55,782 nucleotides of DNA from Prorocentrum cordatum (Eukaryota), in NCBI GenBank assembly GCA_963575745.1, contig CAUYUJ010000133.1:62001-117782 (forward strand). The letters run 5' to 3'. Position 1 is the stretch's first letter, and every line of letters begins with the position of its first letter. Shown piece by piece: positions 6,768-29,214 of the stretch. The notes beneath the pieces were generated by a model. That model was not told the DNA's origin. It ran no database searches and saw only the letters and a list, made by a program, of their open reading frames with translations. Both the position numbers and the translations under genes were made by a program.

Positions 6768-7502
6768 CGTCGATACAAAAAATAACTGCCCGGCCCAGCA
6801 TAGATGGGCCGCCCTCCGTTGAAGTCGGCGTCCGAAACAATGCCCGTCCTGTTGTACACTCCTAACCAAGCTCGCTGTTCTCGCTCGCTGCTCTCCATCA
6901 GCACCTGCGCAGGGCACTTCTCCTGCACTCCGGCGCAAGCAGGAGGGTCGCTCTCGAGGGCTGGCGTGTGGCAGCAAGCATCAGCACGGGAGACGATGCG
7001 CTGCAGCGGCCTCGTCAACAACGCCTGGCTATCGATGAGGTCGCAGTAGAAGCGAGACATGGCGTCACCGTTACGCTGAACAGAGGGAGCGGTGCCTCGG
7101 ACGAGGCTGAAGGACTCGACATCTGCCCGAGCCGGCTTTGGAAGACCAGTGAAGTGCGATACCACTACCTCTGCGCACCGCTTCTGGCACGAATGGTTCA
7201 AGTTCACGCCCGTTGGACTCATGCAATTGAACTTACTGTCCAACTCGGAAATTTTGCCCTCGTACAAAGCATTGATGATCTGCTCGTCGTTCCGCTTGGA
7301 CGCATTGCCCGTGAGGACTTGCGCCATGTGAAATACCATTCTTAGGTACTTTTTAAGACTTGGCTTGAAAAGCATGACACCAGAGCTGAAACCTCTATCG
7401 CACCCATTCGGTACCATGCCAATGTTGTTCCTGGGAATGGTCTGGCTGGAATTCAGCAGAAGGCCCAATGCACCGCTCGCGACATATGTGTCTGCATCCA
7501 TA
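6768..7502 (-). CDS. Exon 2b: GT8 catalytic core plus start of a small Trp/Tyr-rich domain
   Basis: MDADT (DxD), FSSGVMLFKP, NDEQIIN, KFNC and HFTGLPKP are GT8/glycogenin-like motifs, followed by GVYNRTG..FNGGRPIY...YFLY. Ends in CG|GC (GC donor, phase 2). Confidence 0.85.
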
Positions 7503-7837
7503 TCCGCCACCGCGCTTGCGCGATAGTGGAGTGTGAGAATGCGTGCAACTGGTCTGGCACTGACTCTGTGGTTGTCCAAAGCGCCCCCCCTCGCTGGGCC
7601 GACTTCCGAAGCGGGCAAGCGCTTGACCGCGCCCAGGATATCCCGACCCAGGAAACGCTCCGCCGTACCCTGGGAAATCTCCGCCATGCCCGAGGGAAGC
7701 ACCGCGACCTGGAAAGAAATCGACGTGGCTGGGAAAGAACATGATGCCGCCACGTCCTTCACCCTGCGACGCCTCTACCGCCACCGTACTCCTCCTCCTC
7801 CTCCTCCTCCTCCTCCTCCTCCTCCTCCTCCACCTCC

Positions 7838-7858
7838 CCGTAGCCATTTTGGCTCAAG
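7838..7858 (+). other. Dinoflagellate spliced leader (DinoSL) copy at the LINE 5' end
   Basis: CCGTAGCCATTTTGGCTCAAG is an exact match to the 21 invariant nt of DCCGTAGCCATTTTGGCTCAAG. Confidence 0.95.
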
Positions 7859-10800
7859 CCTCCACGGGCCTCCTCGTGTGGGGCTCCCTCCAACCTCGGC
7901 CCAAGGTTGTCCGCCAACCATTCCTTTGTGCACCAGCGCGGGTTCTGTCAGGCTTCCCATCAGAACCTTCATTCATATCGCACGACTAGTCCTGACGCCA
8001 TGTCTTCCCCCTTCTGGCTATGCGCGACGCCACGCTGCCCAGGCTGGTTGTGGCCTTGCAAGGGGAAGCGAAGGTGCAAGTATTGCAGGGAGATTTTCCC
8101 CAAGGACTTACGCTACCCAAGTTCCTCGACTCCTCCCTGGAGTACCTCAGCTACATGGGGGACTGGGACTGGACGGGGCGGTTGGAAGTGGGTGGAAGAC
8201 GATGCAGCAGCAGGTGGTGTGGGAGGTGGAGGCGGCGGCGGCGACGTCCAGCAGCAGTCGACCACCGTGCCCCCACCCAAACAGGTCGGACTCCAAAACA
8301 CTAAATGGGGTGATCGTGAAAAGTCTACAAGGCCCAGGTCGATCTCAACATCGCTAAAAGCTTTTATGGGCCAGGTGAGCCAGAGCTTCTTCAAGCCCAG
8401 CAGGCCCTCCAGGACGCAAAGGCGGCCGCCATTGCAAGTCGACCCCTACCAGTTCAGGCCAAGTCGCTGGCCGACCATATCAACATCCAAAACAGGAAGT
8501 TGGCTACAATTCTTAGCGCAATGGCGGCCCTCGAGGCCTCCATCAAGTAGCAGATAGAGCGCCACGAGCAGCTCCAGCTCGAGTCCGATTCCACGGCCCA
8601 GGAAATCAAAACCTTGAAGTCTCCTACGCCACCATCTCACGAGCAGCAGCAGCGTCCATGGTTGAGGACCAGCAGGACGACCGATTCACGCACGTCCAGC
8701 AAATGCAGCAAGCTACTCTTCATGAACTTCCACAGCTGCCGCCGGAACAAAAGAATGCCGTCCAATCGATGATCCTTGAACTATCGGCTCTACTTGATCA
8801 GGTTGCCCGCACCAACGCGCCGGCTATGGCGCCCACAGCCCCATCAGCGGCCCTGGACCTTCATTCCGCCCTCGACCCTGCAGGTGCAGAAGGAGCAGGA
8901 GCAAGAGCTGAGGAGTCAGCAGGAGCAGCCGCTGACGCGCCCATGGAGGAGGAGGCACGAGAAAGATCGGTCAGTGTTCTTGCTACCAGAGTCTCTCATG
9001 GGTTACGGGGTGTCGCAGCTCGTCATTCCAAGCAGTGTGGTGCGGCTATTCCTCTCATCTCCTCCCTCAAGAAGTCCCCAGATAAGGGCAAGGCCGTGGG
9101 AAAAGGAAAACAGGGCCGAGGGGGCAGCGGGAACGGGAACGGAAGCGACGAGGGCGACCTCCAGGTCTTCTTGGAAGAAACCCGGTTCCTCGCAGAGTCC
9201 GCCCAACCATCCCTCCCAGGTGCCCTTGCGGCCGCAAGCGGCTCTAGTGGAGGCCCCACAACCCGTGGAGGGCGGGGGTGCTGGGTGCCAACTTTGATCC
9301 GGCAGGTTTCCCAGGGGCAAGGACGCCACTAGTTGGCAGTGCAAAGTGGGTACTATAAATGTGAATTCGTGGAATACTTCCAAGCAGATATCGACTCGGA
9401 TAGAATTCTCAAGTATCACGTCCTTTTGCTCCAGGAGACCCACGCTGCTTCGACTGATGATTTTCGGAACGCAGTGGAGTTCAGCATGGCACATGTATTG
9501 CATGGAGTCTTTCCTCTCTCGAGGCGCCTCGAATCTGGACAGTTTTCTGGAGGAGTCGCAATTCTTGTTCGGATGGGGATGAACTTCGGGATCCAGGACA
9601 TTGATTTCGAATACCCCTGTGGTCACCGAGGGCTTGCCATCAAGCTTGATATTGAGAATCTGGGTCGTTTTCTGATTTGCAATCTCTACTTCGAGCCCAG
9701 CACGGGCCTAAAAGAGGTAAATATGAAGCTGCTTGGTGCCGCCGGTAGTCTCCAGGACAAGTTTGAGTTGCCGCTTTTAGCAGGAGGGGACTTCAACATG
9801 GCTTCTCTGACCCTCTGCGTCCCCCAAAAGTTCACCTACTCAACCCGCAAAAATGAGACAACCATCGATTTCTTCATGCTATAGCGGCCGTCAAGAGCCA
9901 GGTGGAGGGAATCGAGTCGGCTACGGACTACCCCCTTTCACCTCACCGACCAGTCATTCTTTCGATAAGGGTGAAGGCTTTGGAAAAGGTGCCAGCTTTC
10001 GTACTACCACCTCAGCGTCCCACCAAGAGACCCTTTGGGCCAGCGCCAGAAAGTGCAGACTGGGAAGATCTTGACCGTTTTTGGGATGTGACGTTGGAGA
10101 TTATCCAAACTAACCAGCTCCCCCAAACGGACAGCCATGATTTACTAGATGCCGTGTATGGTCTCTTCGTCAAGCATTTCGAGCATGTCGTTTGTCTGAA
10201 GACGGATACCCCGAGACCCAAGTCTTCCAGGAGGGAGCAGTATCCTAGAGTAAAGCTTGTCCCAGTGCAGGCTGTACATAAGAAAGCGCGGAAATTTTGG
10301 GTTTCACTCGTCAAGCCAATGACTTGGCTCCAGAACGTATTGCAACATCTGCTGAGGCATGTGGAAGCGGGCCCTGAAATATCCAGAGAGTTCGTCGACC
10401 ATGTTATTTCCGAGTTCTCCGAGGCGCCAGAAGAGCACCAATCGGTACAGACCCTCATTGCAGTGCACACTGAGACCAAGGCTCTTCTGACCGCCTTGGC
10501 CACAAACGCCCGGGCAGGGAGATGTGGTTCAATAGTGCCCAGGGAGATCTTCACGAAGCCTTATGCCGACATCGAGCTCATCCTCCAGAAGGAAAAGGAG
10601 GTTGAGAGGAAGGGATCGGCAGAAGCATGGAAGGGATGGGTGCGAGAAAACCTAGAGGGCATGCCTTCGGGGCGGGCCCACAGGTGGACAAAACCAACCG
10701 ATTTCTGGAAGCCCACGGCCCCCCAGGCCCTACTTCCCTCGGCAAAGCCTTCGGCCCTTCTCGAAGTGGAAGCCCGGCGTCTAGAAGGTATGTGGGAACC

Positions 10801-13800
10801 CACGTCCACACCATCTCCCCCTGTTGAGGCCGACCCATCAGATGCAGCGCAGCTCCCAGAAATATCGGTGGAACAATTCATCATGGTCACCAGGCTGTTT
10901 TCCCGCAAGACCAGTCAGACTTGGGACGGATTCCACCCGAGGCACTACGGGTTCCTCGAACTAGATCAGGTTTGGTTACCGTCAAGCTGTTTCAGCTGAT
11001 AGAGAGAGAGTGGGTAAGATGCCAAGTGTGGTGCTAGCCTTGTACACCACTCTCATTCCCAAGCACAAGCCTGATGATTGAGGCCCAAGTGTTCGTGGAA
11101 TCGTTTGCCTTCCCAGTGCTTACCGGATGTGATCTAGGTTACGGCAACCTGTCTGTAGAGGATGGGAGGCAAGGAACTTCGACCCCCCCATGGCCCACCA
11201 GTCTGGCAGATCAATTCTAGAGATCGTATACCTGCAATCATTGGCAGCTGAATCCACGACCTTGTCCAGGAACATGGTTTCGGGATCCGTTCTATGGGAC
11301 ATCAGTAACTATGACGAGCACGTCTGTAGAGAACTGGTCTGGTCGAGGGCCAAAGAGTCCCAGTTCTCCCTCACAGTACTAGCGGTGGTGCTCAACCAGT
11401 ATGCGCCCAAGAGGTTTTTCAGTTTCCCAGGCCTGGCAGTTGAACTCCAATATCCTCACTTCGGGATCGCAGCGGGTTGCTCATTTGCTACCTTCATCGT
11501 GCAGGTGTATTCCTTGCCTCCGCTCAGAGTGTGGCAGAAGCGGCACCCGACAGTCATTGCGACGATGTTGATCGACGATCTTCAAAGTAACAACACCAGC
11601 GACAGCCGGCAGGAAGTAGTCAATCAGCTAACGGCGTCGGCGGCGGATTTGTCCAGCATGATCCAGCACGAGTTGGAGTGTCAAGTCGCCCAGCGTAAGT
11701 CTGTAATCGTATCTTCCTGCCCCAGGCCCACGGACACGTTAAAAACGAGCTTCGGGAAGTAAGCTGGCAGGGCCCTCTCGTCGACGCCCAACTTAGGAGT
11801 AGATTTCTTCTGTGGGGCCGAGAAAGCCAAAAAAACTACGCTACTAGCAGAGCGTGTTTCGACGCTCAAGAAACGTGGATCCCGGTTCCGTGCCCTGAAG
11901 AAAACTGGAGCCCCTTTGAAGAAGCTTTATGTGTCAGGTCTTCAGGCATCAGGCTTTTACGGTGCAGAGGTCGTGGGGTTCACTTCCCCGGAGCTCAGTG
12001 CAGCCCAGACGCATTACATCTCCCTCGTCGGCGGCTCCTGCAAGAGCCGCTCACGCAGCACATCCCGAGCAGTCTTGAGTGACCCACTTTGTAAGCAAGG
12101 GCTGGGTCCAGCGACGCAGTGGGCCTCGATCGTATGGAAATCAGTGAGCAATGGGAGGTTCAGATCTATCCGCCCTCTCTCCGAGCTGGGGCGATTATTT
12201 CGTGAAGTCCTTCAGCAGCCTCATGCCAACTGGGGAGGGTGAGAGGGCCAGCAGGTGCAGCAATCTTGAGCCTGAAGCGAATTGACTGGCAATTCTTGTC
12301 CTCGTTCGAGATAGTCACCGATCTTGGACGCCAGTACGCCCTAACCGATACCGCTCCGAAGATGATCCATGAGCTAGTGCACGCTGCCTGGAATCGACGA
12401 ACGAACAAGTTGGCCGCCGACCGGCTAGGAATCGACCGATCGGAGCAGCTCGATCCGTCAGGTCTCCGATCCCTGTTAGCGTCAGCGGAGCTCTCGGCTA
12501 GACACAGGAATTTGCTCAGGGCGTTCTCCTGCCAAAGTTTATGGAGAAAACATAGATTATGGCGTCTTGGATATGACACTGACACAACGTGTCTCTGTGG
12601 TAGCGTGCGAGACGATCTTCACCACCGGCTGTTCACGCGCCCACTTACCCAGCATGTGCGCGACGAGTTCTTGTCAACAGAAGATCCCGATATTCTTACT
12701 CATCCAGATGTGGTCTCTGATCCATTATTAGCCTTTCAAGTGTGCCCGTCTTTCCCAACAGTCCCCCCTGAGGGGATTGGACACGAAGATTAGGAATGGT
12801 GGTCTGCAGACGGATCTCCTCCTGAAGTACCTCTGAGGGTGTAGTCTTCTCTGGCGGCCCTGCCTAGAAGGACGGGCACAGGTTCTTCCACCGGGCGGGT
12901 TGGGGACGTGTGAAGCTGTCCGATAGTGGCGAGGTTCTCGCCAGGATGCGTGGTAGAGTGGGTAACATGCTGCCCCAGAGTAGCCCAGCAGCTGAGCATG
13001 TCGCAGTGTTGGCAGCTGTAACATACGCACCGCCAGTAACAGAAATTAGAGCAGACTATAAGGGAGTGGTCGGATTTCACTCCCATCCTCGAGAGACCCT
13101 CCTGTATAGAAAGTCGTTGTACGCAGGAATCAAGATGCGTACAGTTGGACTCTCCGCTAATGGTGTTTCCTATTCTAAGGTGGCTGCCCATTTAGATCCC
13201 TCGTCGTTCCCTGAAGGCTCAGCTGAATGGTTTGACGCCGTGGGAAACGACGAAGCCGACAGAACTGCCAAGCTAGGTGCTAATTCACATTTGCAGCCAT
13301 CGAGTGCCGAGGTGGAGGATCAGGCAACGATTACCAAAGCCTTGGAGTCCTACCTTAAATTCGTCGCTAGAACTCTAGAGGTTTCCCCAGCTCTGCCCAA
13401 ACCCCGTGGCCGGCAGGGGCGCCGTTCCAGACTGAAGAGAGCGGGGCCTCGATGGGAGGGCAGGGCAGAGTACAGCTACCGCGACGAGATGTTGGGCATG
13501 TATTGACCAGTTACGGCTGGTATGGCGCCAGAGAATGGGGTCAATTCGGCAGGCGGGGGTGCTCCTTCCTCCTCCGCCCCTCCCTCTACCCCCCCTCCCC
13601 CGCCGCCGCGCCCGTATAGCCTGTGTTCAGCCGGTATCTGAAAGCCAGCCGCGTACGTCACCCAAGCCCCTCCCCTGGACGCGGCTTCGGGACCAGCCCA
13701 TCACCAGTGGATTTCTGGAGTTGTAAAATCTGCTGCAAGCGAAGCTACTCTGAGTTGCCTTCCGTTTCGGAAGTCTGCACCAGCCATAACGCCGTTTTCA

Positions 13801-14655
13801 GCGCAACCGCAACAAACCCTCGTTTACATAGGATGTATATCGAATGCCACGACTCCGACAGCTTGATATTTGTATGCAGCACATGTGGTTGCACATGCCA
13901 GGGCTAGCGTGCCAAAGGCCTTTTAAAAGAGTGTGATGGTAAATGCAAGAGCTCCCACAACAGGAACAGTTGGCAGCGCATGTTTAAGAGACTGCACCCA
14001 GACCCCGCCAAACGCGACGCAAAGGTGCTAGACGAGCTTTTACCGCTCTCCAGCCTGTTCTCTTAGCTGCCTGTTCACGTGTGTGGCGGGCTTCGAACCC
14101 TCAGCGGTACAATCATAAGTGCTTCGCTTCTTTAAGAAAGTGAACCCCGACAGCCGCCAAAGGCGGTGCATAAGGGATAGATGAGCTTTAACCGCTCTCC
14201 AGTTTGTTCTAGTCCCGAACCCAGCGCTGAATCCGAGCCCAATCCAATCCTCCTCCACCTCCTCCTCCTCCACTGCCTCAATGTCCTCGGCCTCCTTCAC
14301 CCCTTTACTGTCCAGCCCGCGGGAGGTGCACTCCGTACACTCCTCCTCCACGGCGACGCGCGCCCCTGAGGCCCTGAGAGAGCAACAGAGCCACACCGGC
14401 GCACGGCCTGCTCAGAATACTACGGGAGGTAAGCCCAAGGGGAGATCCCCCCAGCGCCGCCACAGCCTGGAGGGTGAGCCCAAAGGAGAGCACCCACCTT
14501 CTCCAGCGTGGCCATACCCAGGGGGGATGAGCTCAAGTCGGGCCCGCCCCCTCCGCCTGGCGCCCGGCTGTCCCTTCGCAGAGCCTGAGGCACCCACACC
14601 GCAGCACCCGATTGCGCCTTCGTAGAGACCAAGGGGCCTATCTGTTTGTTGACCC
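7838..14655 (+). mobile_element. Full-length decayed non-LTR retrotransposon (LINE): Zn-finger ORF1, APE, RT, RNase H
   Basis: ORF1 from ATG 8000 (WLCATPRC...CKYC). APE motifs TINVNS, LLQETH, SGGVAILV, GGDFN, TIDFF, SPHRPV at 9340-9960. RT motifs DGFHP, LIPK, WDISNY, GIAAGCSFA, LIDDL at 10920-11800. RNase H AEHVA, KVAAH, GNDEADR at 12840-13290, then Cys-rich C-terminus. Many stops and frameshifts; flanked by (CCT)n on both sides. The 3' end is approximate. Confidence 0.9.
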
Positions 14656-15796
14656 CTCCTCCTCCTCCTCCTCCTCCTCCTTCTCCTTCTCCGACTCCTC
14701 CTCCTCCTCCTCCTCCTCCTTCTCCTCCTCCTCCTCCTCCTCCTCCTCCTCCTACTCATCCTCATCCTCATCCGCATCCACATCCTCCTCGTCCACCGCC
14801 TCCTGCTCCTCCTCCTCTTCCTCGTCGTCCTCCTGCTCCTCTTCATCCTCCCCCTCCTCTCCCGTCTCCTCCTCCTCCTCTTCCTCCTCCTCCTTTTCCT
14901 CCTCCTCCTCCTCCTTCTCATCATCAGCATCATCATCAGCATCATCATCATCAGCAGCATCAGCATCAGCATCAGAATCATCAGCATCAGCATCATCATC
15001 GCCATCGTCATCATCGTCATCGTCATCATCATCGTCATCACCATCACCAGCATCAGCATCAGCATCATGATCATCATAATCAAGATCATCATCAACATCA
15101 GCAGCATCAGCATCATCACCAGCATCGTCAGCATCATCATCATCAGCAGCAGCAGCCTCCTCCCCCTACTCCCCCTCCACCTCATCCTCTTCCTCCTCCT
15201 CCTCATCATCCTCCTCGTCCTCCTCCTCCTCTTCCTCCTCCGCCTCCTCCTCCTCATCATCAGCATCATCATCGCTATCATCATCAACGTCATCATCATC
15301 ATCAGCATCATCATCATCATCAGCATCATCATTATTGTTATCAGCATCATCATCATCATCATCAGCAGCATTAGCATCAGCATCAGCATCATCATCAGCA
15401 TCAGCAGCATCATCAGCATCATCATTGACAGCAGCAACAGTAACAGCAGTATCAGCATCAACTTCATCAGCATCACCATCATCATCAGCATCACCATCAG
15501 CGTCATCGTCATCACCAGCATCATCATCAGCATCGCCATCATCATCATCATCATCATCAGCATCATCATCATCATCAGCATCATCATCATCGTCAGCGCC
15601 ATCATCATCATCAGCATCAGCATCAGCATCAGCACCATCATCAGCATCATAAGTACCACAAGCAGCAGCATCATCAACCATGATCATCATCATCATCGTC
15701 ATCAGCATAAGCATCAGCACCAGCATCATCACAAGCATACAGCATCAGTATAATCAGCAGCATTATCAAAACCAGCATCATCATCAGCATCGTCAG

Positions 15797-15840
<44 letters not shown>

Positions 15841-15981
15841 GCATCGTCAACATCAGCATCATCATCAGCATCATCATCAGCAGCATCAGCATCAGTATCA
15901 TCAGCATCACCATCATCATCAGTATCAGCATCAGCATCAACATCATCACAGCATCATCATCCTCATCACCATCATCATCAT

Positions 15982-16051
<70 letters not shown>

Positions 16052-16455
16052 GTCATCATCGTCATCATCATCATCAGCATCAGCATCATCAGCAGCACCA
16101 TCAGCAGCAGCAGCCTCCCCCCCCCCTCCTCCTCCTCCTCCACCTCCTCCTCCTCCCTCCTTGTCATCCTCCTCCTCCTCCCTCCTCTCTCATCCTCCTC
16201 CTCCGCCTCCTCCCTCCTCCTCCCTCCTCCTCCTCCTCCTCCTCCCCTCCTCCTCCCCCACCTCTCCTCCTCCTCGTCCTCCTCCTCCTCCTGCTCCTCA
16301 TCCTTCCCCTCCTCCTCCTCCTCCTCCTGCTCCTCATCCTTCCTCCTCCTCCTCCTCCCCCTCCTCCTCGTTCCTCCTCCTCCTCCTCCTCCCCCCCACC
16401 TCCTCCTCCTCCTCCTCTCCTCTCCTCCTCCTCCTCCTCCTCCTCCTCCTCCTCC
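14652..16455. repeat. Compound (CCT)n/(CAT)n/(CAG)n microsatellite
   Basis: Directly visible; source of the spurious poly-M/S/I/H ORFs. Confidence 0.97.
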
Positions 16456-19128
16456 ACCACCGCACCCGACTGCCCCCATCGCAGAGCCCGAAGGACCCCA
16501 CCCCCCTCCCCGCGGCGCCCGAGGAACACCTCGCGGAGCTCACGAGCGTTGGTCCTTTCGAAGAGCCCACGATAATCCCCCCCCTCCCCCCTCCCCCCCC
16601 CGGGCGCCCGACCGTCCCCTCGCAGAGACCAAAAAGAGCCCCCCGCGGCACCAGACCGCCCCCCCCAGGAGCACTTCAGCGCAACCACACGTCCATCTCC
16701 GACTCTCCTGCTCGTCCGTGGCTTCCTCTCCTCCCTCTCTTCTCCGCCTCCAGCCCCTCCTCCTCTTCCCAGTACTCTCCCTCCTCCTCCTCCTCCTTCT
16801 CCTCCACTGCCACATGCTTCTCCTCCTCCTCCTCCTCCTTCTCCTGCTCGGCACGTTCGTTCCCACTCTACTTCGCCTCATCCTCTTTCCTGCTATTCCT
16901 CCTCCTTTCCCGCTTCCTCTTCGTGCCTTTTCTCCACCTCCTCCCCCTCGTCACATGGCAACGCAGGTGGGCGGAAGCAAGTACGACCCTACTCTTCAAA
17001 GCAAACGTGGCAACGCAGGAGGGGTGAAAACAAGTACAAGTATACAAGAGGGCCAGAAAAATCCCGCTTGCCCTCTGGGCGTACACGGGTGCTTTAGCGA
17101 ATTCGTTTTTGCAGCTCCTTTCTTCCCATTCGGGCAAGGGCTCAACAGAGATCTGGCGATTCCCAAACCAAACGGGCGTTCCTTCCTGGTGGCTTTTGCC
17201 GCACACTCGTCGACGTGCGTTCGTCCACGGGCGTTCCTCAGCATGGTGGCTCATCTTGCGTATGAGGGCTGCGCAAAAATTTAGGCGGCGCCGCTATCCG
17301 GAAGCTCCGACTGAGACCGTACGTGGAGCTCCCTACACCCCTCAGGACAAGTAGTGCAATGTTTGCAGGTCGTGTCGAAGAATCGTACGGGGGACTGACC
17401 TGGGGGTAGTGTTTAATCCCCGGCGCGTTTCTGACGGCCCTGGGGCAAAGCTACGAAGAGCGCAGGCGACAAAAACCAACGGATCGACCACTAAGATTGC
17501 ACCATCTTTCCAGGACAGTGCATGGGGGCACACAGCGCGTGAGGGGCGTGCCAGAATGGACCTGCGGAGAGCGCCCGCGGCAGGGACGAGGAGGAGGGCG
17601 GGGAGGGGAGGGGGCGAGCAGGAGGCAGGAGGTGCTCTCGCCACTGCCCCTCCACCTGTTTTAACAACACCTGGCTGGTGCTTCACACTCTTTTGCTTAG
17701 AGCGCCTGCACCCGTCCGCGTGTGCGAGCGCCCTGACGCTGCGGGCGAATCCATCGCGGTGCGGATGAGGCCGTCCGCCCGTGCACGCCCGTGCGCGGGC
17801 GCCCCGGCGACGCGTGCGGGGGCGGCGCCACCGGGGCCTCCGGTGGAGCGCCCTATATGGGGCCGCGAAGCGCGCGAGGGGCGTGCCGACATGGGCGGCT
17901 GGGGCGCACGCGGGCGGCGCCACGGGGGCGAAGGCGCTGAAGTAATGAGACGGGGTTCCCGCCCGCCCCCTCGAGAGGAAGGAGGAGGGAACGGCGCTGG
18001 TGGGCGGAAGCAGGAGGGCGCCTGAAGCAGATCGAGGTCCGGGAACGAAGAGACACCCGCGTTCAACGACCGGTGGGCAGGGGCGAGGTCGCCAAGGCTG
18101 CCTTGCTGGGGCTGCCGGTCTCGAGCGTCAAGTGTAAAGAAGCCCCCGCCCGCGGGCGCCTACGCTGTGTAGGCGAGAAGCCCGCCGCAGGCGCCGACCC
18201 TTTTTCAAAACAGCGCACGGCAAGTTCGTGTCGTGCCGACCCCACCGATGGCTCCTGACATCACGGTGATCGTTCCAGCGTGAACGATCGGCGGTTTACT
18301 GAAACGTCAGATCATTCAACAGCGACCGATTCTAGGTCGCCGGCGGCGCTTGACGTTGAACGCCCGCGACGGGGTCGCCGCCCGTCGACACGACGCGAAC
18401 CTACCGCGGGAACTTTCTGCGGCAACTCATGGGCGCCTCCCATACCATCCTGCGGGCTCTTGCGAACCGACGTTAGTCGACGCCAGTTGACACTAATCAG
18501 CGTCAAACCGACGCCAATCGACTCTCATCGATGCTAAGTCAGCGCCATCTCATGACGCTGCGCACTTGAGTGCAATTACGAAGTTGTACAAGGCTCCCGC
18601 GCATTCCTGCCGACGGAAGAACAGTTTCCCAACTTCGCGCGTCGCGCCCCGCGACGCGCGACGCGCGGTGATCTTCGCGCCCTCGCGCCCCCGCGCCGCG
18701 CCCCTGGAGAGGGGCGGCTCTCCCACCCGAGCAGCCGCGACGCGCGAGGCGCCCTCGGCCTCCGCGCCTCCCCGGGGTGACCCGGGAGAGGCTTCGAGGA
18801 ACAAGCAGGAGGGGCAACCGAGGGGCCCGTTTTCCACCACCACCACCAGAAGCTGGAGGGGGAGGGGGTCCTCCTCCTCCTCCTCCTCCTCCTCCTCCTC
18901 GTTCTCCTCCTCGTCCTCCACCTTCCCCCCTCCAACTTATGGTGGTGGTGGTGGACAACAGGCCCATCAGCAACGTCAGGGGTGGAAGGGCATTATGAAT
19001 CCGCACCTTCCTGGGCGGGGCGGAGCTATCGGGCCCCTATCGGCGATCCATGGGCGATTGGAAGTGGATGCATCCCCCCCTACGCCGATACCCACTTTTC
19101 GCTGCCCCTGAAAGCACTGGCATGAATA

Positions 19129-19282
19129 GGTGACCACATGCGAACCCCACCCCCACGCCCCACGAGCTCTGAGGGGGCTGGGGGCTCGTTCCGCTCGGGA
19201 GCTCCCGAACGAGGTGGACCCCCACCCCCCACCCCCCATAGAAATCGCGGGGGGGGGGGGGTAGGGCTCACATGTGGTCACC
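19129..19282. mobile_element. Small TIR element (MITE-like)
   Basis: GGTGACCACATGCGAACCC ... GGGCTCACATGTGGTCACC inverted repeat (17/19). Confidence 0.55.
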
Positions 19283-19780
19283 GAAGAAGCAGAAACTTCG
19301 CAGGTCTGCGCAGACTTCTTGGATCGGCACGGGAGCCCCCTGGCGGCGCTTCCGGCGCCGCCCCTGGCGCTCCGCGCGCCAGAGAGGGGGGCCCAGCGCC
19401 GATCCAAGAGATTCGCGCGGACCTCCGAAAGCTTGGTTCCGGACGAAATGCAAGGGAGGGATGGGTGGAGAGCGCGCAGCGGTCGGGCGTGTCAAGTGGC
19501 TCTCGTCCTTGACGTTGGAGCCGACACCGAAACCGAAACCGAACGAAATCGACTGATCGAAGAGGCAGCCTAGAAGGGCGTAGCGACGCGGCAGCGACAC
19601 GATAGCCAACCGAACCGAACAGACCGAACAACACCGCATGCGAACCGCGGCCGAAGCGGCCGAACCGTGAGCACCCTCGGAGAAGGAGCGTGGGGGGCGA
19701 GGAGGAGCGCGCCTGGCAGACGTGTGCAGCTGAAAGTTCACAAACGGTAGCGAATGAGAAGAATAGAATGGGGAGAAAAG

Positions 19781-19932
19781 AGCGCGTTCCACTAGCGAGT
19801 TTACTCGCAAAGAGCCTGCTCACAAACGTCCGGAAAAAACAGATATCTTCCGCAACGTAATGGATCGAAAATCCCCCGCGGCGGATCCAGGCCATTTGCG
19901 AGTAGTCACTTTTGCGAGTAGTGGAACGCGCT
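19781..19932. mobile_element. Small TIR element (MITE-like)
   Basis: AGCGCGTTCCACTA / TAGTGGAACGCGCT is a perfect 14-bp inverted repeat, with internal TACTCGCAAA / TTTGCGAGTA pairs. Confidence 0.5.
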
Positions 19933-20567
19933 TGTCTATGGATGCTCGTCCAGGTGGACTTCTGCTTCCCCTTGTTGGCACGGTGGTCCAGGTGGAACGC
20001 TCGTCCAGGTGGAACGCGTGGCAGACGGTGCAGCTGAGTTCACAGACGATGAAGAGCAAAGGGGAGAAACTGTACAACGAGAAGGCGAACGATGAGAAGA
20101 GAAATCTGGAGAGACTTACAAATGATAACCATGTAGTAAAAACGATTAAGACGATTTGAGACTGCACTTCGCCCACTTCGCCGCTCACGGCGAACTCGTC
20201 CGAAGGCAGCAAGCCGCACCAAAAGCAATCAACGAACACAAAAACACATGCCGTACCCGGAAAGCGCGGCGCCCGACCCAGGAGACCGGGCCGAACCCAG
20301 GAAGGCGCTGGCGGTAGCTCTCCAAGCTGCCCCGTCTGCGGCAAAACGGTTTCGCGGTTTTGAGCGAAACGGTTTCTCGGGTTCGCGAGCGACCGATTTC
20401 CAGGACTGGGGATGCGCTTCTCGGGTTCGGAGTTCGACTCCCCGCCGCGCACCCTAGCATGAGATGCACCACCACCCCCCCTGTGTGGCGTCCCGGCTCC
20501 CTTTTCGAGGTCTAGACGGCTCCATGACGGTCCAGGGCTGTTCCAAAACGCTGCAAGATGCCGGATT

Positions 20568-20738
20568 GCTAGCCTTAGGTCGGGCACGTCCCCCTACAGG
20601 CGGATTTTGGGCGAAAATAAAGAATGCTCAAAAATGCCCCTAAAATATTAAAAATAGTAAAAAATCGTCCCCAGACTATTGTTTTTACTATGTTTGAATA
20701 TTCCCCCTGTAGAGGGACGGGCCCGACTTAAGGCTAGC
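20568..20738. mobile_element. Foldback MITE with ~33-bp TIRs and AT-rich core
   Basis: GCTAGCCTTAGGTCGGGCACGTCCCCTACAGGG vs CCCTGTAGAGGGACGGGCCCGACTTAAGGCTAGC (2 mismatches, 1 indel); inner ATAGTAAAAA/TTTTTACTAT. Confidence 0.7.
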
Positions 20739-21799
20739 CCAGGAAAGCCCGCCGATCCCCTAGAGGCTCCGAGATGCCCCCGAGGTGACGTCAGAGGCCC
20801 CGAGGGATGCCCAAAAGGACCCCCAAAGAAGCCTCCAGCGAGACCCGAGAAGGCAGAAACCTGTACAGCCATCGTGCTGCCACATGGAACTCAAGGGGCC
20901 GTAGGACACACACACACACACACACCAAAAAGAAAGTACACACAAATGACAGGATGTTTGGGGAGGCCTCTTTTTGGCAACGCGCCGCCTCAGGTTTGGA
21001 AAGTGAAGCTCAAACCAACTCGATGGTGACGGCCCCAGGGGCCTGGCAAGAGCCCCACCTGCGAGACTTTGACCTCCCCCCGCACTAGCGTCGGACGGAC
21101 GGGCTCCTCACCCGCCGTCCGTGCTGGCACCAGGGAGGCTAGCAGCTCGCAGCGCAACGGGTGACCCGAGAGGGTCACCCGTTACGGCGGGGACACCGCA
21201 CACACCAGGGCCGCCCAGGGCCCGTCTTTAAGCGGGAAAAGCCCTCCAGGGCCAACCAGAGAGCCTGACCTACAAGGTGGCAGCCAGGGGTCGGATGGAG
21301 GGCCGCTTGAGCCGCACACCTACGGAACCGAACGGCGGCGCTCCCAAGGGACCCAAACATCACGCCAACTCCGGAGGTTTGTATTTCATGTTTCGGGAGG
21401 CCTCTTTTTGGCAACGCGCCGCCACAAGTTTGGAAAATGAGGCTCACGCCAACTCGATGGCGACGGCCGCAGGGGCCTGGCAAGAGCCCCCACCTGCGAG
21501 ACTCTGACCTCCCCCCCCACCAGCGTCGGACGGACGGGCTCCTCACCCGCCATCCGTGCTGGCACCAGGGAGGCTAGCAGCTCGCAGCGCAACGGGTGAC
21601 CCGAGCGGGTTACCCGTTACGGCGGGGATACCGCACACACCAGGGCCCGTCTTTAAGCGGGAAAAACCCTCCAGGGCCAACCAGAGAACATTCCACGTTT
21701 CCCTTTCATGGCTTGCCGGCACTTCTACTGTAAATCTCACAACGCTTCACACTGTGCCTACGCAGGGCAGCGTCAGAACTGACTATTTGGGGAGCTTGG

Positions 21800-22420
21800 C
21801 AAAAGCGAGAAGGCAACGGTATCAGCCACCGTTTGCAAAAGACATTCCCGCTATCTTTGTGCCACTCCAGCTGCCCTGCTGAAAAATATATTCCACATTC
21901 TTATGCTGAGTGAAATGAGCGCTCGGCCCACCTGCGCGGAGGCTACACATCGTGAAACTTTAGTAGCTCAAACAAGCACAACAGCAAGGCTGTATAATCC
22001 TTGCTTGGGGCGCACTCATCTCACATGTCAAGTCCTCTGGATCATGAGCCAGACGTCGAGCTTTCCAGACCTTAGACGGTCTTTTCAGTGGACAACAAAT
22101 TCTGAGAAGCTCGCTCTGAGACTCATATTCGACGCTTCGATATGGATGATGGTTTTGTCCTCTGTTAAAAGCACCTGCTGTCGACGCAGCGCCAGCAGCT
22201 CGCCAGTCTGCATGAAAGTGTCGAACCCGACCCAAAAAACTGTAGCAAGGGTCCACTGGCAGCTGCCATGGCCAGGTTTATCTGTTGCGGCGCAGGAGTA
22301 GCCCGGCACGGCGTGCATCGCGTCTCCCAGGTCCTGATCAGGCCCCAACTGTGCTGCAGGTGTGCCCTCAGAGGTGGCATGAACAAATGCAGCGCAATAC
22401 AAGTATTGACCACCGAGTAC
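21800..22420 (-). pseudogene. Tyrosine recombinase remnant of the DIRS element
   Basis: TWE....CRATP followed by box-I-like GFDTFMQTGELLAL (catalytic Arg position reads Gln). Expected position just before repeat B1; heavily decayed. Confidence 0.6.
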
Positions 22421-23149
22421 AGAGTCCCCAGCCCTGTCAGCAGGCCTAGGTACTCATTGAGTTAAGGTCGGCCTCATGCAAGGATACTAGACGAACATCA
22501 TGCGCTCTTCACCAAGCACATACACGCCCAGACCAGCGCACGCACCGTTAGCCAGCGGGCCCAATGAGCTACGGGTCTCGCAAAACATATCACGAGAAGG
22601 ATAGTCACTCGGGTTCAGCTTGGCGTCGATGCGTCCGATGCCCACGCACAAATCCAGGCTCGCAACAATGGCAGCGCACTGCTCGGCCAGGCCGCGCAAC
22701 TCCCCAGAAAATATACGCCGTCTCGTAAGGGCCGAGGCCGCGACGCGAGAGCCGGCCAGATGAAGGGCCTCGACGCCCCTGAAGGTCGCGGCCCGAGCAC
22801 GGCGTTGCAGCGAGGCGCTGACCGCCTACAGCTCCAGCGCGTTGATATGCGGGCCCCGAGCTGTCTTGGGCCAGGGGGGGAACAGGGTTGGACGCGACCC
22901 CCAAAGCACTGGGTCGAACGAAACGCGAGGCCAAGCCTTCTGCAAGAGAGGGCACGCCGACGTCGAGGCGGAAGCTGCTCCCAGACTTCTCGGCGATAGT
23001 ACAGAAAATCTGCACGAACTCTTGGCCCAGCGCGGACTCACGGACGGGGTCCTTTGAGGACTTCACGTCCCCAGCCGGTCCCCCACCTTCGAGCTCAGCG
23101 TGGTCCGCCGCAGATCGGCTTCGCGCGCAGCCCCGCCACGCTCGCGCCT

Positions 23150-24140
23150 GAGCGCCTGGGAAAGCAAGCTCACCGCGCCGCAGGCGACAGCGTTCCCAAC
23201 GAGGCTGCAGCGCCCGGACTCAACGGCGGCGCGGCTAGAGCCCGAACTGGCGACCGAAAGGGTGCAATACCTGGGGAAGCCCCTCGGGGCCTCTCTCACT
23301 GTGGCCCGCAAAAGTCTTGGCTCTCCGCTGGGCCCGTAATCATGTCCAGGAGCTCATGCGGATAGGGGGGATATGCATGTCGACATTGGGACCACCTCCG
23401 AATAGCCTCTGAGCTAGCAGAGCCCAGGCCCGCATGCTTGTAGGGGGCCCTCTTCTCCTGTCGTCGAAGTAGAGCAGCGCGCGCTGGCCCTTCTGACGTG
23501 GCTCGCGAGCAGCCCGCAGACACCCGAGAAGTCGCCGAGGCCATGGGGGCCTGAATGGACTTGATGAGGTCGTAGCGTTGCGCGCCCCTCCCCCCCCTGC
23601 ATCCGCGGGGCCTTGAGGATTGCCTTCCGCCGCGAGCGCCGCCAGAGGCGCGGCCGACGGTTCTCGGCAGACAGGGAGCTGCATATACTAAGGGGCACCT
23701 GCTGGAGGATTCGATTGAGCCTCTGGAAGGGCTCAGCGCTCATGGAGACAACATTTTCCCAGATCCAGTGCGCGGGCACTTGCGTCGCCTGGGTCAACGC
23801 GCGCCCTATCTCGGGAACGCGCGCGACTGGGCCCCTCCGATCGCTGCGAGCCCCGCGCCGATCTGCGTTGATTACGCTGACCTCGCGGCAAGTGCTGCCT
23901 CCAGCGACAGTCGAAGCTTCGATGCGACCCTGGAACAAGGTCAAGGCCTCAAGCTGCTCCACCGGGATCTCTTCCATTGGTTTCAGATCGATAAATGAGG
24001 GGCCAGCGCGATCGTAGCACGCGTCTAGCTCCTTGTCAACCCCACTGCTCACGCAGCCGTCGACGGTGACCCCTGCACGCACCAGAGAGACCACCGGGCC
24101 GCCTATCCCGTCAAACAGGCTGACCAGCAGCACGCGCGGC
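23150..24140 (-). pseudogene. DNMT3-like C5-cytosine methyltransferase domain of the DIRS element (frameshifted)
   Basis: Motif I VSLFDGIGG, motif IV GGSTC (normally GGSPC), motif VI WENV, motif VIII RRPRLW, and motif X LVGNAV in another frame. Confidence 0.85.
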
Positions 24141-27100
24141 CCCTCCTCACTGACATCCGAGAACGAGACGTTGCCGGCGGTTTGTCGAAGCCAAAGGCAG
24201 CGGCAAGCGAGCGCGCACCCGCCCACTAACGCTATCCTTCGGCAGCTCGGCGCATCCTGAGGCGGCCAGCTCCCAGACAACATTGAAGATTCCAAAGAGG
24301 GGCCGCCTGTACTCCACCGCTTGTGCGCAACGGCCCAAGAAGATCCCCAGGGCCGGTCGCGCGCCAGGAGCCTCAGGGCGAGGCCATACAGCGGCGCGTT
24401 CCTCACTCGGTTGTTTGCCGCCCAGCCTGCAGCTCCATCGACCTCCACGCGCATGCGAGTGACGAGGACCAGCCGCTGGCTAGCCTCGTCGACGCCGATG
24501 GGGATGCATTTCATCGCGTAGCATTTCCTCATCCGTTCCTGGAGGCGGCCTGGGGTGACGACCAGAGGTAGCGCGGCCCCCCCGTCGAGCACCTCCCCAG
24601 TGTCGAAACCGCCATCACAGGCACCCCACCAGGCGCAGACGCCGTTGCTCGCGAAGGGGCCCGCCACCGCCTCAGGAACAAGGCGGCCCCTTCTCCACTC
24701 ACAGCCTCGGAAAAACGGGCACCCTGCATGCCCGGCCCTTGGTCAGCACCGCCATCGCAAGCCATGCCTTCCATGCGTTAATCCCAATGATAACCACGGC
24801 CCGGCGCGCGCGCCGCCATGTAGTCCAGCCAAGGCCCAGGGAACCTGCACATGAGAAAGGCATCCTTCTGGTCGCCCCCGCTCCCGAGCAGCAGCTCGTT
24901 GGGCTGCGGCGACGTGCTGGCCCAAGTAGGCGAGGCGACTAGGGTAGCCGAATCGCCGACCAGCGGGCACAGGTAAGCGCGAGTGGGCACCATGCACGAA
25001 ATCAACCTCGCCACCCTCGCAACCCCTGGGCCTGGACTGCCATTCCTAATGACTTCGAGGAGCCCGCGGGTCAAACGCCTGCACTGAGCTTGGAGAAAAC
25101 GCTCAGCGCCACTGCTCTTCACAGACCCAGCTCCATCAGCTTCGCGGCAATGAACCGCCAGTCCTTGAGGCGCTCGACATTGACCTTCACCCTCTGAGGA
25201 GTAGTCGGCCACTCTGCCTCGGGCAGCACGGGGAGCCCTGGCTTAGTCAACAGCACTCTCAGGTCGGCTCCGACATACACGAGGACATCCAAGCAGCCAA
25301 TATCCTCCACCTTGGATAGACCCGGCTCCGGCTCCTTGAAGTTGAGCAGCGAAGCTTGGCAGTCCCCAGGTTGCAGCTGGCCCTGCTCTTCGTCCTCTCC
25401 TGCGGCCAATAAGGCATCTCGACCTCCTCCCGCGAGCTCCAGACGCGCCTCTCGACCGTCTCACCGATCATACGCAGGCTAGCGGGCTGGGCCTGCGAGC
25501 AGGCCCCTGCAGCCCCCCCGCAGTCCACGCCCAGGTGGCCGAGATAGAGGTTGCCGAGACCCGCCATGTTGCAGAAAATCCAAACCTGGATCCTCATGTC
25601 CTGGGCCTCCAGTCTCTGGAAATCTGTCCTCGACGCCCAATCGACAGGGAGGGCCCTCGCCACTCAGTATACCCTTCGCGATCATATTACGTCCCCAGGC
25701 TAATGAAGGTGCCGGCTCCCTCACTGGCAGTGATAGCACGTCTCGTCCCACACCAGCCTCCAGCGATTGTGGCGCGTCGCCTCTGGGGAACAGCCCCACT
25801 AAACCTCCACTCGTGCTCGGGGACTTTCTCGCGTGAGCGAGGGCCCCGAAGCCGATCTCCATCTTCGCCATCCTGCCGCTGCGGGTTCGGCGCAGGCGGG
25901 AAGCGGCGCCAGCCCACCTCTGGCCCCTCCCAGGCGGGGCCTGTACATCGCCGACAGCCGCCGCCCCTCCGCTCAGTCCGCCGGTCGGTCGATCCGCTGC
26001 GCGGGGCCGCCGTGTCGAGGCGCGCTCTTCAGGCCAGCGAGACCCTCGAAGAACTCTCGCACGACCCTCTCCTTCAGCTGATTCGTCGGCCCCCCCTCGG
26101 CCCGAGGCGCGACCGCTCGATCCGATGTCCACGCTGGCAGGGTCAAACCGTCCATCGCTAGGGGGCCCTGGCAGTCTGTCAGCGCGGGCAGGACACCCCC
26201 CCGGCTGCCCGACGGGCAGCCGGCCGGCGTCCTGCAGGGAGTCGCTGCCCAGGCCGCTCTCGAAGCGCCGCCGCATCAGCTGGCGTGCCGACATCCGTGG
26301 TCGGCAAGGCTCTGGGGCCGCGCCATCGCCGCGCCTCTGTCGCCCAGGACGGGCAGGCGAGCCCGCGCCTCCATCCCGGTAGACGTCGTAGCCGCGAGAC
26401 CCCATGCGGCCCAGCAGCTGAGCCATCTTCATTTCCGCCGCCGCTATGCCCATGACCACCTCCTCGCCCACAAACGACACGCTGAGGCCGCCGCTGTCGG
26501 GAGGGGTCAACTCGAACAAATTCGCCGTCCTCAAGCGACCAGCACGGATCGACCTCTGCACATCCCCGCTCTTGCAACCGATGTAGTCCAAGGAGGGCAT
26601 GGGTTGACCTTTGACGATGAGGAAGGCCCACCCACACAGCTTCCGCAGCACCCTGTACCTGCCCTTGCCGAGCACCCTGATCGCACGAGAAGGCCGCAAG
26701 ACACGCAACAGGAATTTCTTGGCCACCGCTCGCGCATGTCCAGGATCCCCGTCCTCGTCGATGTCAAAATACTGAACCATACTCGCCACCTCCTTCTCGG
26801 CGAGGAGGCAGGGACTCTTCCGCGTGATCCTCTTGTAGGTGAGGCGGCGAGCAGCGATGGGCGTCGCTCTCGAGGGGGTCCACGCTGTCCTTCTTGCGAC
26901 AACAGCCCGCCGACACGCGCAAGACCGCCCCCTCGCCTGAGGAGGCAGCAGCAGGTCCAGCTGACCCACAACCCTCCGCAACCTGACTCGGATCTGCACT
27001 CGCGAGACGACACTGAATCAGTTCGCCCTGCTGCAGTTTCTTCCTGCCAGCAGCCTTGTTGGCCGGCTCAACGGCGGCGCTGGCGGCCGCGGCCCCAAGG

Positions 27101-28466
27101 GCTCCGCGCCTCCAGCATGCCAAGGCGCGGATGGAAGCCGTCCTTTGCCCCCGGGTCGCACGTCTCGGCCCTGCCCTCCAGCGCCTGCAACTCACGCTCC
27201 AGCTCCTCGAAAGCCTCGCCAACGTCCTCGCCGTCCGCTCCAACCTTCACGACAGCGAACTCTCCACTGGTCGCCAAGGGCCGACTGCGCGGAGCAGGCA
27301 GGGGGAATCCTTCTCCCACAGCAGACTTGTCCGCCGCAGGCGCAACAGCCTGAGCGAGAGTAGCTCGAGCCACAGCGCGTAGGGTGCCAGAGTCGCTTTC
27401 CGGCGACATCTCCATGTGGTAGTCGGCCGGCTGCGATGTCATCAACATGCGCGGGTCTGCCGCGCGCAATACCTGCATGTCGGGCCACGGTGCTCCGGGC
27501 CATCGCCCAACCACCAAGCTAGATATTTTTCGACTGCTCCGAGGTACTCGTCTCCATTCGCTGTACCTTCATCATGTCCGACAGCTGTCCCCGCAGGACC
27601 TCGAAGATCGGGCCGTCCGACCCGACGGGGTGGGCCACCTGATGTCGGAAGCACTGCCCCACAAGGGGGGCCAGTTGGACGGCGGCAGCTGTGAACATGG
27701 CGAGCCAAAGGCTTGGGGGCGACGCCGTTCCGTGGATGCTCAAAACCTCCCCCCAGGCCCTTCGCCGTGCGGGCGAAACGAAGCAACAGCAAACGCCGCT
27801 TGAGCCGCACACCTACGGAACCGAACGGCGGCGCTCCCAAGGGACCCCAACATCACCCCAACTCCTGAGGGTTGTATTTCATCCCCCATATATCCCAATA
27901 GTTTCTGGATGTTCGTCTTCCCTCTCACTGCCCATATCTTCCCATTCCCATATTTTCCTGGGAGTCGACGATTCATTGTGTCGGTATGTTTTCCCCTCCT
28001 GAGGGGAACAGAATGAGGGAAGAAGGAGCTTTTCCAGCCTCGGCGCGCTTCGGCCACGCATGGGCCCCCCGTCCTCCACCTAAATGACGACCGAAAACCA
28101 AGAGCCCCACCCGAGCCCGGAGTTGCCCTCGTTTCGCTCAGCCTCCTGGCTGCACACGGCACTTGAGGAATATCGTCGTGGGCTGCGCCCGAGGCGCTTA
28201 AGCTGCCAGCCGTACGAGCAGAGCGCCCATGCACCACACCATGCGCGGCCTGCTTCCAGGCCCCGCTCCAAACAGAGGCCTCCTGGATGGGGTCCGAGTA
28301 GATGGGGTCGGAAGATCGCGCGCCGAAGGCGTCGTCGACGAAGGAAGAATGGAAGAGCAAGGCTGTGGAGGAAGAGGAAGAGGAGGAGACCCGCGTCAGT
28401 TCGGATAGGGCACTGAACTGCGTCGCTGCGCTGGCGCGGTGGCGGGGCTTGCCGTAAGCAGCTGCA

Positions 28467-28519
28467 TACAGAACGCGGCCGACCGGCAGCCTGAATGCGT
28501 TCAGCCTCTCGAAAGAGTC
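28467..28519 (-). CDS. Exon 2a of the glycosyltransferase gene (DSFERLNAFRLPVGRVL[Y])
   Basis: Follows a CAG acceptor and matches the GT8 segment 'F.KL..F.L....RVLYLD'. Interrupted by the 21-kb insertion. Confidence 0.8.
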
Positions 28520-28728
28520 CTGTCGGGGAGACGTAAGACTCGGGTACGGGGGAGTCGGGTTGGCCCGGCGGGGCCATCATCAATGACGAGACCCTATATA
28601 AAAATTTGACGCGAACTCCCGCTGCAAACATCCCACGAAAACTGGACCGCCAAAATCCAAGACGCGCTCGTCAAAAAACGTCGGCAAACCCGAGTTCTGG
28701 CTCGCTCGAGTCTTACATTTCCCCGATC
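28520..28728 (-). mobile_element. Intron 1 (GA-AG, 209 nt), Introner/MITE-like element
   Basis: Terminal inverted repeats TCGGGGAAATGTAAGACTCGAG / TCGGGGAGACGTAAGACTCGGG (19/22 identical) flanked by a CAGGA direct repeat that supplies both splice sites. Removal gives in-frame RHQ|DSFERLNAFRLP. Confidence 0.8.
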
Positions 28729-29214
28729 CTGATGGCGCACCATGAACTCGTCGTCAATGCAGGACTCGCCGCAGCTGTTGAAGGAATATGCCGGAGCCCT
28801 CCAGTCTGCGACGAGGACAACGTGCCAACCAGCCTCCTTCAGCGCCGCCTGGTTGTCGTCGGTCATCCCCTTGATCCCCAGAGCAATCCTGAGGTGGTCC
28901 GGCATGTGGCGCGTCAGCGAGACACCGAGCATCACAGCCATGTCGATGAACTCCTGATTGTTCTTACCAGCGTGGGTGACAATGGCTGTTGTGTCCTCAC
29001 TCACCTGCAAGTCATGAAGGGTCAACATCTGGGACCTGTTCCCCTCCAGCCACCAGGACAGCCATTTTGCCGCTTCCGGGGCGCGGGGCATATGCACTTC
29101 CGCAGCTGCTTTCGCGAACGAATCGGCCCCAAGTTTGATCGCGCGGCACCACGGAAGCACGCAGAAGCTCAGCAAGGCCACAGCCACTGGCAACATGGTA
29201 CGGTGCCGGGCCAT
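28729..29214 (-). CDS. Exon 1 of a multi-domain glycosyltransferase gene (signal peptide + N-terminal part of GT8 domain)
   Basis: ATG at 29214; MARHRTMLPVAVALLSFCVLPWCRA is signal-peptide-like. AIVT...FIDMAVMLGVSL...LKEAGWHVV resembles the glycogenin/GT8 N-terminus. Ends CAG|GA (GA donor) and joins the next exon in frame. Confidence 0.8.

Follow-up and report, generated by a model that had tools for sequence, protein, structure and literature searches.

Dinoflagellate genes have been described to carry introns with an 'identically repeated intron boundary' (PMC5032977), and in Amoebophrya more than 60% of the introns are non-GT-AG introns, some of which possess inverted repeats of 8-20 nt together with short direct repeats at their boundaries (PMC7789003). 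For Prorocentrum cordatum, the genome report states that the annotation pipeline admitted only G[T/C/A]..AG introns (PMC10666404). Here we analyzed 55,782 nucleotides of the P. cordatum assembly GCA_963575745.1 (contig CAUYUJ010000133.1, positions 62,001 to 117,782 of the forward strand; referred to as the window), which harbor on the minus strand a gene for a GT8 glycosyltransferase that passes the left window edge and continues beyond base 1. The coding sequence (CDS) of this gene is interrupted by two segments, of 21 kb and 4.8 kb. Canonical dinoflagellate introns start with a G[T/C/A] donor, end in an AG that in most cases precedes a G, and are bounded by a repeat that includes AGG, a rule that neither segment follows. 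An earlier note on this DNA had drawn attention to the 21-kb segment and had proposed that it was either removed from the RNA by a non-canonical route or had arrived recently as a pre-assembled cargo; this frame is still apt, and the exact join has now been found in RNA. The second odd segment, the TGTAT exon end common to both segments, and a public gene model that bridges both of them through cryptic GT..AG pairs are observations that go beyond that note.

Exact removal of the 21-kb segment fuses ...FRLPVGRVLY with MDADTYVASG... in any of three possible registers (7502-28465, 7503-28466 or 7504-28467), both ends having AT in common, which leaves an ambiguity of 2 nt. The tyrosine codon is formed by 28466-28468 and the methionine codon by 7499-7501, both on the minus strand, and the join corresponds to residues 198|199 of the transcript-like protein P0005, within its Pfam GT8 match and one residue ahead of an invariant D-A-D. 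Depending on the register, the ends of the segment on the gene strand read GC..AT, TG..GA or AT..GG, and never G[T/C/A]..AG. The fusion of RVLY to MDADT before the DxD motif and the three pairs of ends had been claimed before and were confirmed on the sequence.

Of 24 runs listed for exon 3, 20 contain it (8 studies), all as assembled contigs and none of them evidently a DNA run. Positions 17000-29450 of the window were aligned to the runs X1, X4, X13 and X16, which stem from four studies, and the joint of the 209-nt intron 1 served as a positive control for the contig alignment. In each of the four runs one contig, with a length of 2,355-3,197 nt and a depth of 28-69, was found to carry the exact join. 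These contigs span exon 1, omit intron 1, span exon 2 down to 28466 and then continue with 30 letters that equal window positions 7472-7501, demonstrating that mRNA carries the exact join rather than the GT..AG join of the gene model. The same RVLY|MDADT join is present in P0005. The search for this join in RNA, which the earlier note had suggested, was therefore positive in all runs aligned, though no contig was identical to the window in exons 1 and 2. Contigs that cross 28466/28465 were not seen in the four runs, and assembled contigs are uninformative either way on this point. In X13, a joint of low depth (17598-24797) that is anchored by 21 nt at one of its ends was taken as repeat noise.

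The public gene model P0006 spans both odd segments by cryptic GT..AG pairs, namely GT at 28469-28468 with AG at 7516-7515 and GT near 6676 with AG near 2059, so that the tyrosine is replaced by Ala-Val-Ala-Asp before the DxD motif and about 52 residues are added. Both pairs keep the frame, and the first donor, GTATGC, resembles a good 5' splice site. Nevertheless, genuine splicing at these sites is highly improbable, as neither a joint nor a loose end at 28470 was detected in the best-supported rows of the four runs (contigs lose rare forms), the first acceptor is AG|C instead of AG|G, and the extra peptides are found in no protein other than the model itself. The added residues, about 52, come from the ends of the 4.8-kb segment (6647-6772 and 1969-2058, minus strand) and, like AVAD, which is read from the end of the 21-kb segment, are probably annotation artefacts. 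Also, when the exon 3 open reading frame (ORF) with its read-through into both segments (P0001) was used as a query, four ordinary homologues were obtained, none of them with insert-derived peptides. A search of 5.8 billion clustered proteins gave just two matches with 100% identity, P0005, encoded on a contig of 2,902 nt, and the gene model of this locus.

The exon map was obtained by placing P0005 and P0006 on the window (Table 1). P0005 is matched by Pfam PF01501 (GT8) at residues 193-321 with an E-value of 4.9e-8, the DxD motif is present, and D-A-D is invariant across all ten aligned homologues (alignment A1). The nearest named relatives of the host protein are dinoflagellate proteins, namely those of Prorocentrum cordatum with 48% and 42% identity and MMETSP transcripts (19 matches). 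The six exons within the window add up to 2,487 nt, corresponding to 829 codons without a single stop; the earlier statement that all host codons are open is thereby upheld, its count of 832 is not. Three ordinary introns of this gene (GA, GC or GT..AG|G), each with a boundary repeat of 5-7 nt, match the identically repeated boundary mentioned above. Intron 1 resembles a miniature inverted-repeat transposable element, with a perfect inverted repeat of 10 nt (28707-28716 and 28533-28542) located 13-14 nt from each end that can be extended, imperfectly, to about 45 nt. As a 44-nt stretch of it (28523-28566) recurs in other RNA contigs with differing flanks, intron 1 belongs to a dispersed family, and it is a clear canonical example of an introner element. 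When metagenome contigs were scanned for the boundary between intron 1 and exon 2, no match was obtained. The window as a whole has a G+C content of 55-65% and is abundant in triplet microsatellites, which together with the three ordinary introns is in keeping with a dinoflagellate.

Table 1. Coordinates of the GT8 gene, of its two odd segments and of features lying within them (window positions).
Feature	Position	Strand	Remarks
Exon 1	28729..29226	-	start codon 29224-29226
Intron 1	28520..28728	-	209 nt, GA..AG|G, 5-nt boundary repeat; joint in 4/4 RNA runs
Exon 2	28466..28519	-	54 nt; last 5 nt TGTAT (28466-28470)
21-kb segment absent from mRNA	7502..28465	-	20,964 bp; RNA contigs, 4/4 runs
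Inverted-repeat arm 1	7504..7515	.	CCGCCACCGCGC on plus strand; 12-nt perfect
Inverted-repeat arm 2	28434..28445	.	12/12 pairing; then 20-21-nt tail up to the join
Exon 3	6773..7501	-	729 nt, 243 codons; opens MDADT (DxD), closes TGTAT (6773-6777)
Second segment absent from P0005	1969..6772	-	4,804 bp; ends TC..GT or CG..TT, 1-nt ambiguity
Exon 4	1480..1968	-	
Intron	1062..1479	-	418 nt, GC..AG|G, boundary repeat
Exon 5	929..1061	-	
Intron	585..928	-	344 nt, GT..AG|G
Exon 6	1..584	-	passes window edge
AP-endonuclease (LINE-type) ORF fragment	9333..9881	+	Pfam PF03372 Exo_endo_phos, E 1.6e-9
Triplet and hexamer microsatellite block	14655..16455	.	1.8 kb, within the 21-kb segment
Cryptic GT..AG 'intron' of P0006	7515..28469	-	20,955 nt; yields RVL-AVAD-MDADT; unseen in RNA contigs

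The second segment is situated 729 nt downstream of the join of the 21-kb segment, and its removal is likewise exact in P0005. It is rich in satellites and yielded no Pfam match. The pentamer TGTAT is present just twice in the 2,487-nt CDS, and both copies end exactly at the odd joins; the octamers preceding these joins are TTCTGTAT and TTTTGTAT. Given the first join, the chance that the second would also follow TGTAT was estimated post hoc at about 1 in 1,000. Both segments terminate in ...CGG(A/T)T, and a terminal family common to both was dropped as a candidate, since their ends are otherwise unalike. The 10-mers in which TGTAT is extended by the initial five bases of either odd segment recur once each elsewhere in the window (13871-13880 and 2289-2298, both plus strand), one in the LINE-like (long interspersed nuclear element) region and the other within the 4.8-kb segment, possibly by chance (about 0.1 each). 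Three repeats were noted in the 4.8-kb segment, a satellite at 2996-4631 consisting of about 14 copies of 115-bp (231-bp) units with 72-77% identity and a strong C-over-G skew and, near it, a stretch of (ATAC)45 (2656-2835) and a minisatellite of 20-nt units (5494-5836).

The asymmetric 12-bp inverted repeat that had been reported for the ends of the 21-kb segment is real. Its arms are located 1-2 nt from one segment end and 20-21 nt from the other, and when two window positions were drawn at random in 20,000 trials, a perfect repeat of at least 12 nt no further than 45 nt from them turned up at a frequency of 0.00035; a local-alignment null gave 0.001. Terminal hairpins were present in DNA folds as stated previously, and they are short and come without a shuffle control; similarly, the 21-nt tail after arm 2 forms a stem of only 3-4 bp, with no control. 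When the two ends of each segment or intron were folded as an RNA duplex and compared with shuffles, z-values of -2.3 were obtained for both odd segments and of -3.3 for intron 1; the two plain introns, with -0.2 and 0.1, did not pair better than shuffles. The very ends of the 4.8-kb segment show 10/12 pairing, by eye only.

The assignment of the 21-kb segment to Helitron2-like elements was not supported. No Rep or helicase domain was found in its ORFs, the target is not T|T, and no second copy of a terminus was encountered: the 29-33-nt termini at either end occur once in the window, and the left terminus had no match in metagenome contigs. With respect to canonical Helitrons (HLE1), a TC start at an A|T site exists in a single register only (7503-28466, plus strand) and is lost in the others, and the element closes with ...GCTGCA, so that the CTRR end is absent, as had been noted. 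With its inverted repeat and a short tail that folds into a weak stem-loop, the layout agrees equally well with the signature of dinoflagellate introner elements.

The content of the 21-kb segment was surveyed by a Pfam search on 146 ORFs of at least 55 amino acids and a separate scan of the longer ORFs. A single domain, Exo_endo_phos, was detected, and RepHel, Helitron_like_N, PIF1, DIRS, HUH and recombinase domains were not found in the insert ORFs; the decayed LINE that had been proposed to lie within the segment is thus represented by this one match, whereas the proposed DIRS element has no Pfam counterpart. Reverse transcriptase-like motifs spotted by eye were unsupported by Pfam or by a sequence search against the PDB. 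The segment has one internal repeat of 310 bp and nothing in common with the remaining 35 kb of the window, and RNA contigs matched it merely in scraps of 30-45 nt with 1-2 mismatches, i.e., repeats from elsewhere. This content looks like old intron filler.

The domain survey also bears on the possibility that the segments are excised from DNA in some cells or strains, in the manner of the internal eliminated sequences of ciliates or of a seamless transposition of the HUH type to the 3' side of a constant pentamer. Both segments are positioned 3' of the same pentamer, there is no real target duplication, subterminal hairpins exist, and ciliates are fellow alveolates. Taken together, the position, the missing duplication and the hairpins are reminiscent of how IS200/IS605-type and Helitron-type elements insert. 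However, HUH, Rep and recombinase domains are missing from the insert ORFs and the terminal sequences of the two segments are alike in a few bases only; we know of nothing like DNA-level excision in dinoflagellates and give this explanation a very slim chance. Misplacement of foreign sequence into an exon during assembly is the least probable explanation that we considered. The genome is large and repeat-rich, but on the far side of the 20,964 bp, and likewise of the 4,804 bp, the coding sequence continues at exactly the next base, and an assembly chimera would not bring back the frame at both places.

We tentatively favour the reading that both segments are old, transposon-derived, non-canonical introns that are cut exactly from the pre-mRNA of a functional gene, and we consider it only barely short of an even chance. 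It agrees with the presence of old, intron-like filler in the segments while 829 host codons stay open, with the TGTAT common to both joins and with the pairing of the segment ends, and it has precedents in Amoebophrya (PMC7789003) and euglenids (PMC11282704). Apart from the segments, the identity between exons and mRNA is at least 99.5%, which would make two recent large insertions an unlikely coincidence. A possible course of events is that elements with short terminal inverted repeats entered an exon at AT-rich TGTAT sites, that the insertions were tolerated since the cell could remove them, and that the segments later swelled with LINE debris, satellites and microsatellites, as may have happened to other long introns of such genomes. 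Pairing of the intron ends, which in the 21-kb segment would involve the 12-bp G+C helix, might bring both joins together, and a relaxed or separate splicing activity might then cut immediately behind the exonic UGUAU at one end and behind ...CGG(A/U)U at the other.

Several known routes were considered for such joins and dropped. A Tc1/mariner-type TA target duplication would leave the empty site 2 nt short, and U12 AT-AC ends were likewise discarded by inspection. Group I rules (U at -1, terminal G) fit only one register of the 21-kb segment, IRE1-type CNG|CNG loops are one base off, and a bulge-helix-bulge fold is absent from the cofold. A shifted |GTAT donor, with GTAT restored from the acceptor side, was rejected on the ground that the letters on the acceptor side differ.

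The most serious alternative to exact RNA removal, which we hold possible although clearly below even, is that the window contains a silent, insertion-bearing paralogue or strain variant and that the mRNA stems from an uninterrupted copy elsewhere or from other strains. The two insertions would then have occurred at AT-rich TGTA|T sites; with the same limited confidence, the 21-kb segment would be a composite element with 12-bp inverted repeats and a cargo of old debris, the 4.8-kb segment a satellite-rich piece, and the annotated cryptic GT..AG model an artefact. A number of observations weigh against removal from RNA, and most of them suit a silent copy. None of the four RNA contigs matches the window letter for letter across the 590 nt of exons 1 and 2, each being 1-2 letters off: in X1, position 29165 turns Phe into Cys, the residue also present in P0005, and 29176 carries a silent change, and X4, X13 and X16 have in common a change at 28821, from Val to Ile, with 100% of the depth. 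Similarly, P0005 departs from the window by four residue differences and an indel of four residues. Therefore, the RNA may derive from another copy or strain. Assembled contigs, moreover, lose rare variants, and P0005 is the sole record of the second join. The segment ends are unspliceable under the known dinoflagellate rules (PMC10666404), and our literature search yielded no description of introns outside the G[T/C/A]..AG pattern in core dinoflagellates. Microhomology of 1-2 nt at both joins fits insertion or end joining, and the inverted repeat fits an element with terminal inverted repeats. In the 4.8-kb segment no significant inverted repeat was found (6 nt perfect; alignment null 0.10). 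No patch of the CDS is richer in AT than the second site, and AT enrichment at the first is moderate, so that AT-seeking insertion could also account for the common TGTAT. Finally, dinoflagellate genes are often multi-copy, and a copy-private insertion of 26,073 bp, within an intron, is known in Crypthecodinium (PMC5032977).

A silent copy, on the other hand, requires either that both TGTAT copies of the CDS were hit by large, unrelated insertions within about 0.2-0.4% of divergence from the mRNA or that a long-term gene conversion was confined to exons, and the 4.8-kb piece lacks transposon features. At all three variable sites in the 590 nt of exons 1 and 2 the window agrees with one RNA type, such that it has no letter of its own when both RNA haplotypes are combined. 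RNA-DNA differences were reported at 45,180 sites in thousands of genes of P. cordatum (PMC10666404); they let one mismatch fit this locus, and a single mismatch is therefore weak evidence against the locus as the source of the RNA. No second genomic gene model with an uninterrupted join was present among the 5.8 billion clustered proteins. The indel of P0005 consists of four extra residues, LGQR, at about 966-977 (minus strand) and corresponds to an in-frame haplotype difference of 12 nt.

A further point against a silent copy is provided by P0003, a protein of 250 amino acids encoded on a 1,020-nt contig from a related organism. It is 76% identical to the host protein, covers exon 3 alone, begins with MDADT in the middle of the GT8 domain, ends at most two codons from the second join and retains 47 of 47 invariant family residues. 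Judged by its sequence, P0003 suggests an exon-limited ORF in another species, and the interruption at the second site may thus predate the species. However, the Met start may be the choice of the gene caller, and P0003 is a lead rather than a proof. A representative search with exon 3 returned 45 matches, among which there was no other clear case of an ORF limited to this exon; P0043, P0051 and P0038, which begin close to the first residue of exon 3, are distant (30-41% identical) and ambiguous.

Exact removal of such segments from RNA could extend beyond this gene. Modelled acceptors of P. cordatum are followed by G (AGG) in only 79.7% of the cases, versus at least 93% in other free-living dinoflagellates (PMC10666404), and odd introns forced onto cryptic sites, as in P0006, would yield such a low AGG share. 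It is possible, and in our view somewhat less than an even prospect, that core dinoflagellates hold a hidden class of transposon-derived introns which lack G[T/C/A]..AG ends, possess an exonic UGUAU and paired ends, reach more than 20 kb and are removed to the base, and that annotation pipelines would force them onto cryptic sites, thereby corrupting many gene models. Should this locus be the source of the RNA, the case would represent the first Amoebophrya- or euglenid-style intron removal in a bloom-forming core dinoflagellate, at 20 times the described size, and UGUAU| plus end pairing would offer a sequence handle for finding the machinery. It would also imply systematic errors in dinoflagellate gene models, with about 55 spurious residues in the public model of this gene, and could account for the low AGG acceptor share. 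If, instead, the RNA comes from an intact twin, two site-selective large insertions have hit one exon pair and have been masked as introns by annotation.

Elsewhere in the window, a Copia-type retrotransposon occupies 44093-52392, with an open ORF of 1,787 amino acids (44584-49944, minus strand) that matches RVT_2 and SAP. The repeats on its two sides (44093-44425 and 52054-52392) have an identity of only about 91%, which is unexpected beside an open ORF. Upstream of the GT8 gene, the regions 31200-36350 and 39960-43550 have dispersed segments of 100-720 bp in common with 73-94% identity, a likeness that reflects a segmental duplication or a repeat family.

When compared to described systems, the 21-kb segment resembles Helitron2/Helentron elements (HLE2) in its short terminal inverted repeats (12-16 nt in HLE2), in a possible stem-loop after the right repeat and in the lack of a target duplication, whereas the HLE2 target is T|T and the registers here are T|A, A|T and T|A; unlike HLE2, the segment has no RepHel in its ORFs, no family copies in the window or the metagenome contigs, and a stem-loop of only 3-4 bp (PMC11417382). 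The introner-like elements (ILEs) of Polarella and Symbiodinium (bioRxiv 10.1101/2020.10.14.339549) and the 'introner elements' of P. cordatum (PMC10666404) likewise combine an inverted repeat at the ends with a short direct repeat and insert into exons; in contrast to both segments studied here, their target duplication supplies G[T/C/A]..AG splice sites (bioRxiv 10.1101/2020.10.14.339549; PMC10666404). In the ADH-C gene of Crypthecodinium cohnii, which has an intron of 26,372 bp and belongs to a tandem array, a giant copy-private interruption also occurs with exons nearly identical to those of expressed copies, but there the 26,073-bp insertion lies in an ordinary AGG-bounded intron and here in an exon without usable splice sites (PMC5032977).

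The nonconventional introns of euglenids, an unrelated lineage, have non-canonical joins, end pairing that bridges the exons and repeats resembling target-site duplications at the joins; they reach several thousand nt and coexist with conventional introns in one gene, as is the case here (PMC11282704). Their pairing involves +4 to +6 and -8 to -6, whereas the arms of the 21-kb segment are found at +21 and -3, and excision as circles was demonstrated for them, the segments of this locus being known from sequence and from the RNA join (PMC11282704). The non-canonical introns of Amoebophrya (Syndiniales) belong to a dinoflagellate lineage, have non-GT..AG ends, are removed exactly from mRNA and have a proposed transposon origin (PMC7789003). 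They also carry a short direct repeat overlapping the boundary, of 3-5 nt as opposed to 2 nt and 1 nt at the two joins here (PMC7789003). The introns analyzed there measure 40-1000 nt and form repeated families, unlike the segments of 21 kb and 4.8 kb, for which no second copy was found in the window or in the metagenome contigs; U1 small nuclear RNA was reported missing from Amoebophrya, and an exonic TGTAT is not described in the accessible part of that report (PMC7789003). Of the Amoebophrya-type signature, an inverted repeat of 8-20 nt plus a direct repeat at the boundary, the 4.8-kb segment has only 6 nt of perfect inverted repeat, whereas the 21-kb segment displays it with 12 nt at +21/-3 and a direct repeat of 2 nt. 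The non-canonical introns of Amoebophrya are the closest working analogy for the odd segments of the P. cordatum GT8 gene.

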